Below, in pieces: positions 14,465 through 17,948 of a stretch of DNA of 29,653 nucleotides (positions are counted from its first letter, which is position 1; each line of letters starts with the position of its first letter). A model generated the notes under the pieces. That model saw only the letters and a list, made by a program, of their open reading frames with translations, did no database searches and had not been told where the DNA came from. The translations under genes and the position numbers were made by a program. The stretch covers positions 1 through 29,653 of the forward strand of contig JANRKO010000091.1 of the NCBI GenBank assembly GCA_033763455.1. The letters are read 5' to 3'. Source of the DNA: Polyangiaceae bacterium. Lineage in GTDB: Bacteria > Myxococcota_A > Polyangia > Polyangiales > Polyangiaceae.

Positions 14465-15772
14465 ATGGCAAGCGTTCGACTCAGTTGGAGGCGGCATCGC
14501 GGCGTTTGCGCGCCGTCTTATCTATCGCTTTTCTTAGCCGTATTAGCGGGCGGAGTCGCTCAGCAAGGCTGCAGCGGCGAAACGACCGAGCGCGGAGCGC
14601 TGAAGGGGGGAACGGGCGGGAGCACGGCCTCCACGACGGGCGGCACAGCGGTGGGGCTGGGGGGCGCGGCGAGCACAGGCGGAACTGCAGGAAGTCTCCT
14701 TCCCAAGACAGGCGGAAACGGGGGCAATATAGGCGGAGTTGTTTCGGTGGCGTCTGGTGGCTCGCAAAGCGGTGAAAGCGGAGGTTCACGCAACGGAACC
14801 GGCGCGGGCGGTGGCTCACAAGGCGGGGGAGCTACAACCGCTGTCGGAGGTGCCACCACGGGAGTCTCAAGTTCTGCGCCCGGCAACAGCTGTCGCGCTC
14901 TCCCCGAGAACTGCGGCCCACAAGAAACGGAAAACTGCTGCGCCAGTCCATTGCTTCCAGGAGGTATGTTTTATCGCGGCGAAATTACAGACAACGGTGC
15001 GCCAGCAACGTTGAGCCCATTCCATCTCGATCGTTTCGAGGTCACCGTGGGGCGCTATCGTAAGTTTGTAGAGTCTTACGACGCTTGGCGGCAGGCTGGG
15101 CACCCAACGGCTCAAGAAGGAGCGCACCCCAATGCCGCCGGCACCGGCTGGAACCCAGCGTGGAACACCGAACTTGACGTGTTAGCCCCCGATGCTGCAA
15201 CGCTGAAGAAGAACCTGGCGTGCACATCCGGCCAAAACACATGGACGGACGTGCCGGGGGCTCATGAAACGCGACCAGCCGGCTGCGTAAACTGGTACCA
15301 AGCGTTTGCGTTCTGTATTTGGGACGGCGGCTACTTACCAACCGAGGCTGAGTTCAATTTTGCGCAAACGGGCGGCTCGGAGAGGCGTTACCTGCCTTGG
15401 TCATCGCCTCCAAGCGCTCAGCAATATGACCGAAAGTACGCCAGCTACGAGTGTTCCATTGCTGAAAGTGGACTCGAAAGCTGCATTTTCAAAGTGGGGG
15501 CACACCCGTTGGGAGATGGCCGCTTCGGGCAGGCCGATCTTGGGGGCAACATGTGGGAATGGACCTTGGACTACGAGGTTGGATACCCAACACCGTGCCA
15601 AGATTGCACCAGCATGTTGGATCCCGAGGGCCCGATGACAGAAGGTCGCATAATACGTGGGGGCGGCTGGTCTAACGGTTCAAGCGGCATGCGATCGGGG
15701 TACCGTGTTGGCCAAGACCCGCAGAGAGTGCGCGGTTCTGGTATTGGCTTTCGCTGTGCCCACACCCCGTAG
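14465..15772 (+). CDS. FGE-sulfatase (SUMF1/EgtB/PvdO) domain protein with a Gly-rich linker, probable lipoprotein
   Basis: LDRFEVTVGRY, VNWYQAFAFCIWDGGYLPTEAEF, DLGGNMWEW, RGGGW and IGFRCA motifs. Confidence 0.92.
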   Translation: MASVRLSWRRHRGVCAPSYLSLFLAVLAGGVAQQGCSGETTERGALKGGTGGSTASTTGGTAVGLGGAASTGGTAGSLLPKTGGNGGNIGGVVSVASGGSQSGESGGSRNGTGAGGGSQGGGATTAVGGATTGVSSSAPGNSCRALPENCGPQETENCCASPLLPGGMFYRGEITDNGAPATLSPFHLDRFEVTVGRYRKFVESYDAWRQAGHPTAQEGAHPNAAGTGWNPAWNTELDVLAPDAATLKKNLACTSGQNTWTDVPGAHETRPAGCVNWYQAFAFCIWDGGYLPTEAEFNFAQTGGSERRYLPWSSPPSAQQYDRKYASYECSIAESGLESCIFKVGAHPLGDGRFGQADLGGNMWEWTLDYEVGYPTPCQDCTSMLDPEGPMTEGRIIRGGGWSNGSSGMRSGYRVGQDPQRVRGSGIGFRCAHTP

Positions 15773-15848
15773 GGCAGGGCGCATTCTTGCCGGGTATCTT
15801 CACCGACCACAACAACTACTATTGCTATAGCTGCGGGCACTTGAGCTT

Positions 15849-16322
15849 TCACCTATTCGAGGACGTATTGCTAGGCGCCGCAGAAGACGTGGGTGTCTTC
15901 GGCGTGGGAGCGTTGAGTGGCAGCGGCGGCGCACGGTAAATCGGCGTTCCACCGCCGGGATCGGGAACATAGGGGGGCGTGGTGACTCCCCGTTCGACGT
16001 CGACCATCGGTGGAGCGGGAGCAGCACCGCCTGAACCCACTGCGCCACCTGCGCCACCTGCGCCACCTGCGCCACCTGCGCCGCCTGATGCACCAACCCC
16101 CGGAACCGCGCTTTGAATCTCACCACCACACGCCGCAAGCACTGCCGCAACACTGGAAAGAGATAGCCCGTAGAATACCTTCTTGGCTGTTCCCAGGTTC
16201 GCAGGAACACAAAGCGCAGGCCCCTTGGACTGCACAACCCGAGCTTCACTACAAAACGGACAGACTGATTCACTGCGCTCAACGTGTCGGCGGCAGCTCT
16301 GGCAAACAACTAGATCTAACAT
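15849..16322 (-). CDS. Putative radical SAM substrate protein (Zn-ribbon, lipobox, Gly/Pro-rich tail)
   Basis: GAGG RBS; CQSCRRHV...CPFC; LAACGG; (GGA)n linker; PIYRAPP. Lies 89 bp downstream of the co-oriented radical SAM gene. Confidence 0.75.
   Translation of the reverse strand: MLDLVVCQSCRRHVERSESVCPFCSEARVVQSKGPALCVPANLGTAKKVFYGLSLSSVAAVLAACGGEIQSAVPGVGASGGAGGAGGAGGAGGAVGSGGAAPAPPMVDVERGVTTPPYVPDPGGGTPIYRAPPLPLNAPTPKTPTSSAAPSNTSSNR
16041..16085. repeat. 9-bp tandem repeat (4 perfect copies and 1 imperfect) encoding a Gly-Gly-Ala linker
   Basis: (TGCGCCACC)x4 followed by TGCGCCGCC. Confidence 0.95.
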
Positions 16323-16411
16323 GCCGTACCTCTCGGATTCACGGGCTTAACGGATCAAACACTTGGCGATTCCAGCGCTCCAATTTGCTTAAGACTCGCA
16401 AAATGCAGGCT

Positions 16412-17659
16412 CTAGCTAGTGAAGGCATCTTCGACGATCTCAAAACGACCAAAATCAAAGGGCAACCCCGGGGCACGATGGGTTTTCTCCAGCCGCTCTT
16501 TTTTACCTTGTCGGGCCATTTCGAGGGCTCGATGGTGACACAGGGGATTATTCCCGATCTTGCCCAGAAGAACGTGGCTCGTCCAATTGCAGCCACCCTT
16601 ACATACTTCAGCATAGTAGCACGTGCGGCAGTAACCCCACAAGTCCGCAACCGTAAGTTCTCGCGTGAAACGCAAACGCGAAGAACGTTCCCAAATGTTC
16701 AGGAGCCCGTGCTCCAAGATATTGCCACCAGCAAAAGCGGACGTGGGCAACGAGGGGCAACCCTTGATGGTTCCATCCGATTCGATTCCGAGCGACGTCC
16801 GCCCAGCGCCACACGCATACATGTGACCTCGCGGCATGTCGCCGCGGAGCACCTCTTCGAACGGCCCGAAATAGCCTAAATTGTTGCCGGGGTAAAAGCT
16901 CACGCCCCCCGCATCCAAGACTCGCTTGAGCTCCGCAAGGCGCGGGAAAAGCGCTAGCAAATCCACTGGCTGGAGCACCAGATCGCTCGCATCCGCCGCG
17001 CGCCCCATTGGCACCGTGAGCCCTGCTTGCCAGCTATGCGCCCCCACCTCCACCACCAAGCGCACCAATTCATGAAGCTCATGCAGATTCTTTCGATTGA
17101 TCTGAGTATTTACGCTGAACGGCATTTGCTGCTCGCGCAAGGTGGAAAACACCCCCAGCGTTTGTGCGTAGAGGCCGTCTAGATTTCGCAAATCATCGTG
17201 AGTCTTGCCTACGCCGTCCACCGAGATACTCAAGCTACTTAAACCGGCATCCTTTGCCGCCTTTACAAGCTCCTGGCGAATGCCGCGCCCACCGCTCACC
17301 ATCGCCACTTCAATTCCGCGCCTTGCGAGTCGACCCACCACCTCTAGCCAACCGGGATGAAGGTAAGCCTCTCCCCCAATCAATGAGACCTCCTTCACGC
17401 CGAAATCCGCGAGTTGATCGGCCACGTTGAGACACTCTTCGGTGGAAAGTTCGCGCGAACGCGCGTGGCCCGCCCGCGAGCCGCAATGATTGCAAGCCAG
17501 ATCGCAGCGCAATGTGAGCTCCCACACTGCGACAACGGGCCGCCAAAACTCGTCTACGGGGCGCGCGGTGGGTTCAAGATCCGGGGTGCGATCTTCAGCC
17601 GTGAGTATGGGGAGGCGCAGCATCGAAACCAGCATGTGCCGATGGTCTGGATCGCGCAA
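16412..17659 (-). CDS. Radical SAM/SPASM peptide maturase, PlpX-like (splicease / GDL-associated) family
   Basis: VWELTLRCDLACNHCGSRAG, IGGEAYL, NTQIN, GNNLGYFGP, LGIESDGTIKGCPSLP, LWGYCRTCYYAEVCKGGC and GNNPLCHHRAL motifs. Start may be slightly downstream. Confidence 0.88.
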   Translation of the reverse strand: MRDPDHRHMLVSMLRLPILTAEDRTPDLEPTARPVDEFWRPVVAVWELTLRCDLACNHCGSRAGHARSRELSTEECLNVADQLADFGVKEVSLIGGEAYLHPGWLEVVGRLARRGIEVAMVSGGRGIRQELVKAAKDAGLSSLSISVDGVGKTHDDLRNLDGLYAQTLGVFSTLREQQMPFSVNTQINRKNLHELHELVRLVVEVGAHSWQAGLTVPMGRAADASDLVLQPVDLLALFPRLAELKRVLDAGGVSFYPGNNLGYFGPFEEVLRGDMPRGHMYACGAGRTSLGIESDGTIKGCPSLPTSAFAGGNILEHGLLNIWERSSRLRFTRELTVADLWGYCRTCYYAEVCKGGCNWTSHVLLGKIGNNPLCHHRALEMARQGKKERLEKTHRAPGLPFDFGRFEIVEDAFTS

Positions 17660-17948
17660 TGCAGGGTAGTGTTCGTCCTACTCTCTGCCGTGAACTTGAA
17701 TACACGATTCAGCCGGGGCGGACGCAAGCCCGGCTCGCCTCCACCGGGGTAAGGTTCAGCCAGAAATGGTGTACCTTTTTCACAGCAGGGTTCCGCGAGC
17801 GCCTCCGAACCATCAGCAACCTTACTGTAAGATTCCGGGGTCGACTCTCGACCGGCGTGAGGTCAGCCTTTCGTTCATTTTTTCTGGACCTCTTTTGTGT
17901 GCCCGCACCACTATCGCACCGGCCGCCACTCGCGGAGATCTTGGCGTG

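Follow-up and report, generated by a model that had tools for sequence, protein, structure and literature searches.

A candidate Tyr-Arg-specific enzyme-substrate pair in a rare subfamily of splicease-like loci of myxobacteria

A 29,653-nucleotide stretch of a Polyangiaceae genome (contig JANRKO010000091.1 of assembly GCA_033763455.1; hereafter the window) carries a radical-SAM (rSAM)/SPASM enzyme gene followed by the gene for a 157-aa partner protein, in which the Tyr of the proposed modification site is followed by Arg (YR) where related partners have Gly (YG). The locus is probably a functioning pair of genes that belongs to a rare Tyr-Arg subfamily within the myxobacterial splicease-like systems, the course proposed below being taken as a whole, and we hold with good confidence that enzyme and partner are a functional, co-evolved, YR-specific enzyme-substrate pair. 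By analogy, the reaction has about an even chance of being tyramine excision. It is suggested more tentatively that the YR-type enzymes would be the first natural spliceases to cut tyramine beside a residue other than Gly (X-Tyr-Arg), with barrel residues 43, 101-103, 131 and 213 setting the specificity for the residue after Tyr (+1). Tyramine splicing installs β-amino-α-keto residues in peptides and proteins, with uses in protease inhibitors and site-specific labelling; the reported sites all require Tyr-Gly, and Gly is reportedly essential for PlpX.

Locus and partner architecture

The two intact ORFs lie co-oriented on the minus strand, enzyme first (Table 1). This order, as proposed from the sequence alone, was confirmed. 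The Pfam domains of the enzyme are Radical_SAM (aa 47-201, 75 bits) and SPASM (30.2 bits). No gene for an RRE or PlpY-like (PqqD-like) Y protein was seen among the genes neighbouring the pair, in agreement with the sequence-only reading; binary non-cyanobacterial splicease systems normally have no RRE and need no Y protein (PMC11414181). Neither a sigma-70-like promoter nor an intrinsic terminator was found in 15600-17900, which says little for a myxobacterium. The source genome is metagenome-assembled, in 92 contigs, and also carries a canonical YG pair, on contig C6.

Table 1. Coordinates of the enzyme and partner genes and their features in the window
Feature	Position	Strand	Basis
rSAM/SPASM enzyme, splicease-like, YR-type subclade, 415 aa	16412..17659	-	ORF, Pfam, NCBIfam
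V43 (Tyr in 57/64 YG-linked, Val in 5/5 YR-linked enzymes)	17531..17533	-	alignment
CX3CX2C radical-SAM cluster motif, C52/C56/C59	17483..17506	-	invariant columns, alignment A1
H101-P102-G103 after GGE motif (R-D-D in YG-linked)	17351..17359	-	alignment
L131 (Arg in 55/64 YG-linked, Leu in 5/5 YR-linked)	17267..17269	-	alignment
G213 (Gln in 62/64 YG-linked; Ala in the other 4 YR-linked)	17021..17023	-	alignment
SPASM domain with auxiliary-cluster cysteines	16616..16813	-	PF13186, aa 283-348
Enzyme-partner gap, 89 nt	16323..16411	-	sequence
Partner/substrate protein, YR-type, 157 aa	15849..16322	-	ORF; zinc-ribbon partner family member
Cys4 zinc ribbon C7/C10/C21/C24, proposed docking leader	16251..16304	-	invariant columns, A2
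Lipoprotein-type signal: K-K, hydrophobic stretch, lipobox L-A-A-C65	16128..16193	-	sequence reading
F49-Y50-G51, sole YG dipeptide, in signal peptide	16170..16178	-	sequence; aligns with family A-F-G
Gly/Ala linker, 9-bp tandem repeat, 5.3 copies	16040..16087	-	TRF, period 9
Conserved core block Y118-VPDPGGGTPIYRAPPLPLNAPTP-141	15900..15971	-	comparison with L034
Tyr129 (TAC) + Arg130 (CGT), proposed modification site	15933..15938	-	L034 comparison, contig overlay

From N- to C-terminus the partner consists of a Cys4 zinc ribbon (C7-x2-C10-R-H-V...C21-P-F-C24), a lipoprotein signal, a Gly/Ala linker and GGGTPIYRAPP. The sequence-only reading had listed CxxC-RHV...CPFC, a lipobox, a Gly linker and GGGTPIYRAPP, together with the codons TAC CGT for Tyr-Arg, and these were confirmed. 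Its C-x2-C-x-R-H...C-P-F-C ribbon and lipobox Cys are those of the zinc-ribbon partner family, in which C7, C10, R12, C21, F23, C24 and C65 are invariant over 50 aligned partners (A2); no Pfam or NCBIfam family was matched. Contigs of other runs differ in the repeat region, with 9 bases deleted and a back-joint of 45 bases. The tail contains two Tyr, Y118-V and Y129-R, and thus no xYG(A/G)P site; the core reads I-Y-R, not the X-Tyr-Gly of an adjacent-precursor core site. The earlier statement that the partner has no YG dipeptide at all was wrong, since F49-Y50-G51 (tac ggg for YG at 16170-16175) lies in the h-region of the signal peptide.

The canonical Tyr-Gly family

Homologues of the enzyme occur in 262/401 genomes of the order. 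Beside them lie proteins composed of a ribbon, a signal and xYG(A/G)P. Among 69 such partner ORFs, drawn from 45 related loci, 167/174 tail Tyr are followed by Gly, in line with the typical ending ...YGAPP given in the sequence-only reading, and two further tallies gave 296/323 and 190/235. At the aligned site, at least 90% of 50 partners have Y-G, and the window's partner has R in place of the Gly. YG partners carry 1-6 sites each and are often encoded by several tandem genes. Partner types with Tyr-Ser (P0135, P0192, P0221, P0076) and Tyr-Ala (P0206, P0104) also occur. Among metagenome contigs, the enzyme query returned 48 loci, the nearest of which, L102, is 66% identical to it in the C-terminal third and is paired with a canonical YG partner.

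Authenticity and constraint of Tyr-Arg

A relic locus of the same genus, L034, was compared codon by codon with the window. Over the 24 codons of the core block, 12 are changed synonymously and 4 non-synonymously, and both codons of the site are among the synonymous changes (Tyr TAC in the window and TAT in L034; Arg CGT and CGG). The enzyme fragment of L034 likewise reads HPG at 101-103. The flanks of the window and L034 share only the two gene fragments. The G338 locus is a relic in which a 118-aa enzyme stub is fused to the partner C-terminus.

The single base that separates CGT from GGT, in a metagenome-assembled genome of 92 contigs, had raised the option of an error in sequencing or assembly. 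Across 15933-15938, contigs from runs X1 and X2 show no difference from the window, although both runs consist of contigs only, stem from a single study and may have been the assembly's own source, and no contig spans the whole 2.1 kb. With the CGG codon of the relic in another genome and Arg at the same place in nine other partners, the error option is refuted and its probability is negligible. The pairing recurs in a small number of related genomes with matching changes in the enzyme, and so, as judged by sequence comparison, looks like a natural specificity variant rather than a sequence error.

Recurrence of the YR type

Nine further partners have the ending P(I/V)YRA(T/V)P, and an enzyme adjoins four of these. 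The nine are the cluster representatives P0124, P0129, P0147, P0162 and P0176 and the partners of four family genomes (G205, G871, G850, G841), each without YG; with the window's genome, the type is present in 5/383 family genomes searched. The site occurs once per protein, at the extreme C-terminus, and Y-R-A-x-P (Y129, R130, A131, P133) is invariant in six aligned YR-type partners (A3). L138 and L167-L169 have the same single C-terminal P-(I/V)-Y-R-A-x-P site with no YG in the tail, and so does the window's partner. It departs from the other YR partners in reading APP instead of ATP, in a 24-aa C-terminal extension and in its F-Y-G leader: the stretch ...S-L-A-V-M-(T/A)-F-R... is replaced by K-K-V-F-Y-G-L-S, F-R being present in 7/9 of the others.

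An intact enzyme accompanies a YR partner in G871, G850 and G841. The G205 enzyme contains a stop and has no ATG, GTG or TTG upstream of the rSAM motif. The enzyme query of genome contigs returned 51 loci, with relic L034 the only YR-type one, and in a phylum-wide sample of 401 genomes the YR profile matched solely the window's own genome. Searches of G209 and G275, two genomes of the window's genus, turned up no YR-type match, and the partner query of metagenome contigs gave 604 pattern matches and no relatives. The YR loci are patchy across genomes and prone to decay.

Enzyme family and integrity

The enzyme had been called PlpX-like from the sequence, the PlpX family being related to TIGR04103/TIGR03913. 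These are indeed its two best NCBIfam families, at 451.8 and 409.5 bits, yet both scores lie under the curated cut-offs (725, equivalog, and 591.75, respectively); canonical Polyangia enzymes likewise miss the TIGR04103 cut-off, at 506-519 bits. The enzyme is splicease-like, yet below both curated equivalog cut-offs. It retains 64/64 invariant columns of the family alignment (46 rows), among them the SPASM-side Cys C283, C301, C344, C347, C353, C357 and C374, and 95/99 columns conserved to at least 95%.

Enzyme signature and phylogeny

Five YR-linked enzymes, that of the window included, were compared with 64 YG-linked enzymes. All five differ from at least 80% of the YG-linked enzymes at positions 43, 48, 78, 101, 103, 116, 131 and 213, and share the changes Y43V, R101H, D103G/A, R131L and Q213A/G. 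YG-linked enzymes typically have Y43, R101, D103, M116, R131 and Q213 (R101 and D103 in 60/64 each, against H101 and G/A103 in 5/5 YR-linked). The full pattern V43, H101, G/A103, I/V116, L131, A/G213 is present in 5/5 YR-linked and 0/64 YG-linked enzymes and reads V, H, G, I, L, G in the window. Other rows carry at most three of the seven tabulated signature states, the nearest being L011 (H101, A103, A163); H101 with G103 is also found in two YG-linked enzymes, L061 and L071. Q213 was rejected as a stand-alone marker because L001 (Ala) and L011 (Phe) have no Gln there and yet have YG partners.

On a quick tree the five YR-linked enzymes form one group (SH-aLRT 94; 0/500 label shuffles as low), nested within the YG-linked Polyangia clade. 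Identity between the window's enzyme and the other YR-linked ones is 54-56%, and in BLAST they are not reciprocal best matches. When it was constrained to group with the canonical paralogue of its own genus, the placement was not rejected by the AU test (delta lnL 17, p 0.163), so that descent of the YR type from one ancestor is not proven; a recent duplication within the genus is not favoured by the free tree and not rejected by that test.

The test is thereby compatible with a decaying paralogue, in which the partner has lost its Gly, the enzyme is a drifting orphan that looks intact, and the canonical pair on C6 is the functional one. Such a history would fit the long terminal branch of the window's enzyme (1.0-1.2 substitutions per site; the median is 0.17-0.19), its four deviations at columns conserved to at least 95% (family median 1), the deletion relic that is its sole close orthologue and the lack of a YR-type match in G209 and G275. 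Against it, the N-terminal fragment of the enzyme shows pN 0.17, far below pS 0.74, relative to the relic; the core block has mostly synonymous changes, with Y and R retained; all catalytic cysteines are kept; and identical enzyme substitutions recur alongside YR, with both genes intact in three other genomes. Decay of this kind is quite improbable for the window, and for the YR subfamily a substrate that lost its site is unlikely, although single loci do decay. From the three alternatives first considered (new specificity, lost site, base-call error), the new-specificity pair is therefore favoured, on account of the retention of YR through synonymous turnover, its recurrence in nine partners, the enzyme signature and clade, and the complex model.

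Model of the enzyme-partner complex

The modelled complex reached an ipSAE of 0.68 (median of 3 runs), against 0.00 for the best of 3 controls. The mark applied was reached by 116/157 solved complexes and 2/215 mismatched pairs, counts which hold only approximately here because custom alignments were supplied. The runs share at least 64% of contacts, and the partner pLDDT is at least 66. In the model, the first 22 residues of the partner contact the enzyme at residues 264-270, 279, 348-352 and 376, and partner residues 119-135 are placed in the rSAM barrel, where their contacts include signature positions 43 and 213; positions 101, 103, 116 and 131 are absent from the confident contacts. AlphaFold has likewise put XYG sites in the splicease active site, and no solved splicease structure was reported in the same study (Richter et al., PMC11414181).

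The model also bears on the proposal that the true target is F49-Y50-G51 of the signal peptide, with the YR block serving another role, e.g., as a binding epitope. This is the sole XYG in the partner, and it replaces the family A-F-G at a column where no other aligned partner has Tyr. Residues 49-51 are, however, outside the predicted interface while 119-135 are inside it, none of the other nine YR-type partners contains a YG, and a site in a cleaved signal peptide would never reach the mature product; the proposal is very improbable.

Proposed course and the nature of the reaction

For the favoured YR-specific pair, the following course is suggested. The partner would be synthesised as a pre-prolipoprotein, and in the cytoplasm its N-terminal Cys4 zinc ribbon would dock on the enzyme at its SPASM/bridging region; the partner's disordered C-terminal residues 119-135 (...GGGTPIYRAPP...) would then thread into the radical-SAM barrel. 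The enzyme would act at Tyr129 and, if it works as PlpX does, remove the equivalent of tyramine (C8H9NO, -135 Da), leaving an alpha-keto-beta-amino residue derived from Ile128 joined directly to Arg130. After modification the partner would be exported, the ribbon departing with the signal peptide and Cys65 becoming lipidated, and the Gly/Ala linker would serve as a flexible tether that presents the modified tail, plausibly a ketoamide warhead for binding proteases. On this reading the enzyme is adapted to an Arg after the Tyr: bulky or cationic residues that YG-linked enzymes conserve are exchanged (Y43V, R101H, D103G, R131L, Q213G).

A co-evolved, working pair might instead carry out another radical reaction at or near Tyr129, such as a Tyr-Arg or Tyr-backbone crosslink, C-H functionalisation or epimerisation, with no excision of tyramine. 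The scores under the TIGR04103 and TIGR03913 equivalog cut-offs could be read in this way, as could the eight conserved positions at which every YR-linked enzyme is altered (two lie in the barrel interface of the model), the single extreme C-terminal site (1-6 in YG partners) and the restriction of published spliced sites to XYG. Yet the site context is the same but for the +1 residue, P-(I/V)-Y-x-A-P aligning column by column with xYGAP, the family-invariant columns and SPASM cysteines are all retained, and the YR enzymes nest among YG-linked ones, so that a different reaction is considered rather unlikely.

If tyramine is indeed excised beside Arg, the 'XYG' rule would belong to certain enzyme lineages rather than to the chemistry itself, and the Tyr-Ser and Tyr-Ala partner types would mark more specificity classes. 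A natural lineage co-evolved with Tyr-Arg would enlarge the usable sequence space, point to candidate specificity-determining residues for engineering and yield ketoamide warheads whose P1' residue is cationic. Since YG and YR pairs occur in one genome, they offer a natural experiment on the part of the +1 residue in the reaction. The YR type would be a distinct class within a very widespread, zinc-ribbon-led and probably enzyme-modified lipoprotein family of myxobacteria.

Relation to known systems

XYG is the sole splice motif in PMC11414181, PMC11626197, PMC9811515 and PMC11002830, and no non-Gly splice site was mentioned in titles and abstract openings among the papers listed on spliceases from 2022 on. 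According to PMC10849128, splicease types were catalogued across 189 genera by Scott et al. 2022 (Chem). No paper was found on TIGR04103 or TIGR03913.

The type I systems PlpX/PlpY/PlpA and PcpXYA (Pleurocapsa, TIGR04103) resemble the window in combining rSAM and SPASM, in belonging to the family that scores highest for its enzyme, and in a Tyr in Pro-rich context, as in the splice tags ...PIRPLYGLPI (PMC10533398). They differ in that the window's enzyme scores below their family's cut-off, that the window has no Y/RRE protein, that their leader is of the Nif11/NHLP type and not a zinc ribbon with a lipoprotein signal, and that their +1 residue is Gly, whereas the window has Arg at one site in a 157-aa substrate. 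The type II systems of Rheinheimera (RhaX/RhaA, RcsX/RcsA, RasX/RasA) share the two-component layout with no Y protein and have a leader predicted to bind the enzyme directly (PMC11414181), and their products are ketoamide protease inhibitors (PMC11626197); as described, they differ in their MYG and LYG sites, in a leader that is a helix and not a zinc ribbon, and in not being lipoproteins.

Canonical Polyangia pairs, e.g., that on C6, have the same architecture and gene order, a core block that aligns column by column, and enzymes 54-60% identical to the window's; they differ in the +1 Gly, in site number, in a leader that is mostly A-F-G and in the YG-type residues at the six signature positions. 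The GDL motif peptide-associated maturases (TIGR03913) of a Myxococcaceae clade represent the second-best family of the window's enzyme, and one relative there, L025, scores 590.1 bits against the cut-off of 591.75. That clade is separate on the tree, and its downstream gene encodes ~60-75 aa with a ribbon only and no YG/YR tail.

Clostridial VYAGP-repeat zinc-ribbon systems combine splicease-like enzymes, 33-38% identical to the window's, with disordered ribbon proteins bearing Tyr motifs. They differ in a C-terminal ribbon, in Y-x-G-P repeated 2-11 times, in having no lipoprotein signal and in a distant enzyme lineage. As in the window, Tyr is followed by a residue other than Gly; in these systems it varies (A, M, N, R, F, W), with VYRGP in L122.

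Enzyme-partner pair

An rSAM/SPASM enzyme gene is followed, after an intergenic gap of 89 nt, by the gene of a putative substrate protein, the partner (see the table). The top NCBIfam match of the enzyme was TIGR04103 ('nif11-class peptide radical SAM maturase 3', the PlpX splicease family; 451.8 bits, cut-off 725), followed by TIGR03913 ('GDL motif peptide-associated' maturase; 409.5 bits, cut-off 591.75). The sequence-only reading had called the enzyme PlpX-like, after a family that excises tyramine at XYG sites; the affinity to that family stands, but, because both scores are under their cut-offs, the enzyme is splicease-like and a curated member of neither family. It contains 64/64 invariant columns of the family alignment and retains 95 of 99 columns of at least 95% conservation (deviations A167T, Q213G, A294S and R387K; family median 1, maximum 14), and looks functional. 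As had been read from the DNA, no RRE-like gene was found among the genes neighbouring the pair, and this binary organisation is the norm in non-cyanobacterial splicease systems (PMC11414181). The surroundings consist of unrelated genes (an FGE-sulfatase-domain protein, a pectate-lyase-like protein, a GH8 enzyme and homogentisate dioxygenase). The first of these, SUMF1-like with a Gly/Ser-rich N-terminal part, is convergent with the partner gene; no link between it and the pair was found.

Positions of features in the window
Feature	Position	Strand	Basis
FGE-sulfatase-domain protein, 435 aa	14465-15772	plus	
Partner ORF, 157 aa	15849-16322	minus	ORF reading
Tyr129-Arg130 codons, TAC CGT	15933-15938	minus	codon reading
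Partner Gly/Ala linker	16040-16087	minus	9-bp x 5.3 tandem repeat
rSAM/SPASM enzyme ORF, 415 aa	16412-17659	minus	ORF reading; radical-SAM and SPASM domains

The partner matched no Pfam or NCBIfam family. An N-terminal Cys4 ribbon (C7-x2-C10-R-H-V ... C21-P-F-C24) is followed by K-K and a hydrophobic stretch up to the lipobox L-A-A-C65, the linker and the tail ...PPYVPDPGGGTPIYRAPPLPLNAPTPKTPTSSAAPSNTSSNR, in which P-I-Y-R-A-P-P matches P-(L/A)-Y-G-(A/G)-P-P column by column in a 50-row partner alignment. Partners are termed YR-type or YG-type by the residue after the tail Tyr. The window partner had been described as free of YG dipeptides; F49-Y50-G51 is present, within the signal-peptide h-region. 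Contigs of other runs carry a 9-base deletion (run X4) and a 45-base back-joint (run X1) in the linker repeat, so the linker seems to differ in length among strains. Across all partners, the last aromatic dipeptide of the leader/signal region (window 16128-16193) varies with the core site: F-G occurs in 141, F-A in 80 and F-R in 5 of 331 YG-type partners, F-R in 7 of 9 YR-type partners and F-Y-G in the window partner, which the census script binned wrongly as YG-type. The dipeptide may be a splice-site mimic based on Phe, carried by the leader, or a trait of the clade.

Canonical YG partners in Polyangia

Enzyme homologues at E <= 1e-40 were present in 262 of 401 sampled genomes of the window's order (including unpublished genomes G124, G315 and G397, which entered this tally alone), many with 2-4 copies, and were adjoined by one or several genes of partner-like build. 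Among 69 partner ORFs gathered from 45 loci, leaving out the window locus (L052) and duplicates L056 and L073, Gly followed 167 of 174 tail Tyr, commonly as (L/A/V/P)-Y-G-(A/G)-P; the 6 ORFs without a tail YG comprised 4 clipped by the locus end and 2 Myxococcaceae ribbon-only proteins. Two further sets agree: in 119 ribboned proteins recovered by profile search, Gly came after 296 of 323 Tyr, and in 125 recovered by exhaustive HMMER search, for which the window partner was the query, after 190 of 235; the latter set is skewed toward window relatives. The statement that partners typically end in '...YGAPP' agrees with these tabulations. In public records the partners are named either 'hypothetical protein' or 'zinc ribbon domain-containing protein'. 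The window genome, a 93.7% complete MAG in 92 contigs, also has a canonical pair on contig C6, with an enzyme 57% identical to the window enzyme and partner sites QPLYGAPAP and VALYGAVPAP.

At Myxococcaceae/Archangiaceae loci L013, L025, L027, L028 and L033, enzymes at the TIGR03913 cut-off (L025, 590.1 vs 591.75) were followed by a ribbon-only protein of ~60-75 aa (R-C-P-G-C-x-x-H-I-Y-P-Q...C-P-x-C plus a helix), in which a signal peptide and a YG tail were absent. In some partners the Tyr site (A-I-Y-G-M-T or A-I-Y-S-A-T) is found where an OmpA-like C-terminal domain begins, instead of in a disordered tail, as at locus L001 (2327-3034) and in the 227-aa minus-strand partner of L140 (G354:C2). 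Q213 is also missing from the L001 enzyme.

Support for the Tyr-Arg site

A base-call error (CGT for GGT) had been offered as one explanation and is refuted: at 15933-15938 Logan contigs of X1 (15700-16015) and X2 (15773-15954), runs of one study that may be the source of the assembly, show no difference from the window over the Tyr-Arg site, and the Arg codon is CGG in the closest relative. This relative, locus L034 of the same-genus Polyangiales MAG G338 (also G001; contig C67, 3001-3556), is a relic in which the first ~118 enzyme codons are fused out of frame to the C-terminal ~70 partner codons, with ~1.28 kb missing (window 17285 to 16001). Its flanks showed no synteny with the window, and no remaining enzyme or partner sequence was found elsewhere in the G338 genome. 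PIN/VapC-like and antitoxin-like ORFs lie downstream.

The relic block, FVPDPGGGTRIYRAPPLPLHAPKP, differs from the window over 24 codons by 12 synonymous differences and 4 residue changes (Tyr TAC/TAT, Arg CGT/CGG at the site). Between the two genomes, in which synonymous sites are saturated, N-terminal fragments of the YR-type enzyme had 81/108 identical residues (pN 0.17, pS 0.74), and those of the canonical paralogue 94/111 (pN 0.11, pS 0.63). These comparisons indicate that the YR pair is somewhat faster-evolving than the canonical paralogue yet under clear purifying selection. The Arg is older than the split of the window genome and G338, and YR is neither an error nor a freshly lost site.

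YR-type relatives

No close orthologue of the window partner was found by exhaustive HMMER search (best E 2.3e-9). Five cluster representatives (P0124, P0129, P0147, P0162 and P0176) have a single C-terminal P-(I/V)-Y-R-A-(T/V)-P and no YG; the tail of P0147, ...DDPYDGGGTPIYRAVPNG, closely resembles the window's. Y129, R130, A131 and P133 are invariant in the alignment of these six partners. When genomes were searched with a profile built from the YR-type alignment, the window genome (G000, 130 bits) and G205 (114 bits) were outstanding among 401 genomes of the order, the next match (87.7 bits) being YG-type; among 401 genomes of the phylum, the window's own genome alone matched; and among all 383 genomes available for the family, 7 matched at E <= 1e-24, of which G000, G205, G871, G850 and G841 were YR-type and G870 and G864 YG-type. 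The YR partner is directly preceded by an intact enzyme gene in G871, G850 and G841. The partner and genome matches together mark YR as a subfamily.

The YR-linked enzyme at locus L138 of G205 (contig C113, 227-1504), a genome in which no second family enzyme was found, has an in-frame stop ~20 codons before the conserved R-P-R-V-A-V-W-E domain start and no ATG, GTG or TTG in frame until past the CX3CX2C motif. A pseudogene, a non-canonical start or a sequencing error may account for this. That the window pair is itself a decaying paralogue is improbable but has some support: YR-type loci do break (G338, perhaps G205), and a YR-type match is missing from two same-genus genomes searched.

Other partners have a sole tail site of Tyr-Ser (I-Y-S-A-V-F-P-P or I-Y-S-A-A; P0135, P0192, P0221, P0076, P0148 and P0234) or Tyr-Ala (L-Y-A-A-V or I-Y-A-A-A; P0206, P0104 and P0160), and may represent further +1 specificity classes.

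Enzyme signature and phylogeny

Enzymes were grouped by the neighbour's motif, not their own sequence, into 5 YR-linked and 64 YG-linked. At eight columns (numbered on the window enzyme) all five YR-linked enzymes depart from at least 80% of the YG-linked ones: Y43 (57/64) is V (5/5), I48 is L, D78 is lost, R101 (60/64) is H, D103 (60/64) is G/A, M116 is I/V, R131 (55/64) is L and Q213 (62/64) is A, or G in the window. Other rows have at most three of seven tabulated signature states, the nearest being L011 (H101, A103, A163); L061 and L071 have H101 and G103 only, and V43, H101 and G103 also occur in the L034 stub. The trend in YR-linked enzymes is toward smaller or uncharged residues, as would be expected if the enzymes had come to accommodate a side chain that is long and cationic.

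A quick maximum-likelihood tree was built from 69 enzymes, seven distant rows being omitted. In it the five YR-linked enzymes formed one group (SH-aLRT 94), as did the four non-window rows (SH-aLRT 99), and 0/500 label shuffles needed as few changes as observed. The window branch is long (1.01); the window enzyme shares only 54-56% identity with the other four, among which identity is 70-77%, and BLAST does not return the window and G205 enzymes as mutual best matches. Placement of the window enzyme with its genus's canonical paralogues was not rejected by the AU test (delta lnL 17.0, p 0.163). If the window lineage gained the signature states independently, the signature-site link would be stronger, not weaker.

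Complex prediction and proposed mechanism

The complex was predicted from a 46-row enzyme and a 50-row partner alignment. The ipSAE was 0.68 (median of 0.68, 0.66 and 0.94), against 0.00 for the best of 3 controls; the mark for ipSAE is passed by 116/157 solved complexes and 2/215 mismatched pairs, counts that are rough here given custom alignments. Runs had at least 64% of contacts in common, with partner pLDDT of at least 66. Confident contacts join partner ribbon 1-22 to enzyme 264-270, 279, 348-352 and 376, and the YR block (119-135, 138 and 141) to 42-45, 90-94, 117-121, 140-144, 180-186, 208-213 and 254-260, the radical-SAM barrel interior, including signature positions 43 and 213. The model supports enzyme-partner binding. 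Since PMC11414181 reports that spliceases still lack a solved structure, the passing score is unlikely to reflect training on this family. Peptide complexes of other SPASM enzymes do exist. It is very improbable that F-Y-G (49-51) is the true site, these residues lying outside the predicted interface.

We propose that the ribbon serves as the leader by which the enzyme docks in the cytoplasm, a role supported by the modeled contacts, and that the C-terminal block would enter the barrel, where Tyr129 would be modified. By splicease analogy, the reaction would be tyramine excision, leaving Arg preceded by an alpha-keto-beta-amino residue derived from Ile; that the YR clade performs a different radical chemistry we consider unlikely. 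Putative export and a cut at Cys65 would remove ribbon and signal peptide, giving a predicted disordered lipoprotein of ~92 aa displaying the modified tail. Its role may be protease binding, since other spliceotides have such activity (PMC11626197, PMC9811515).

Comparison with known systems

The window pair, which would work like a binary splicease system, falls within the zinc-ribbon branch that Polyangia contribute to the superfamily; it departs from the curated 'splicease/spliceotide' definition in two defining features, the equivalog score and the XYG core site. The splice motif is XYG in PMC11414181 and in the available parts of PMC11626197, PMC10533398, PMC9811515, PMC10849128, PMC11002830 and PMC5995677; the catalogue of non-XYG sites may be longer, as the catalogue of Scott et al. 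(2022) might list some. Natural variation of the +1 residue is seen in a more distant Clostridial branch with VYAGP repeats, in which A, M, N, R, F or W comes after Tyr.
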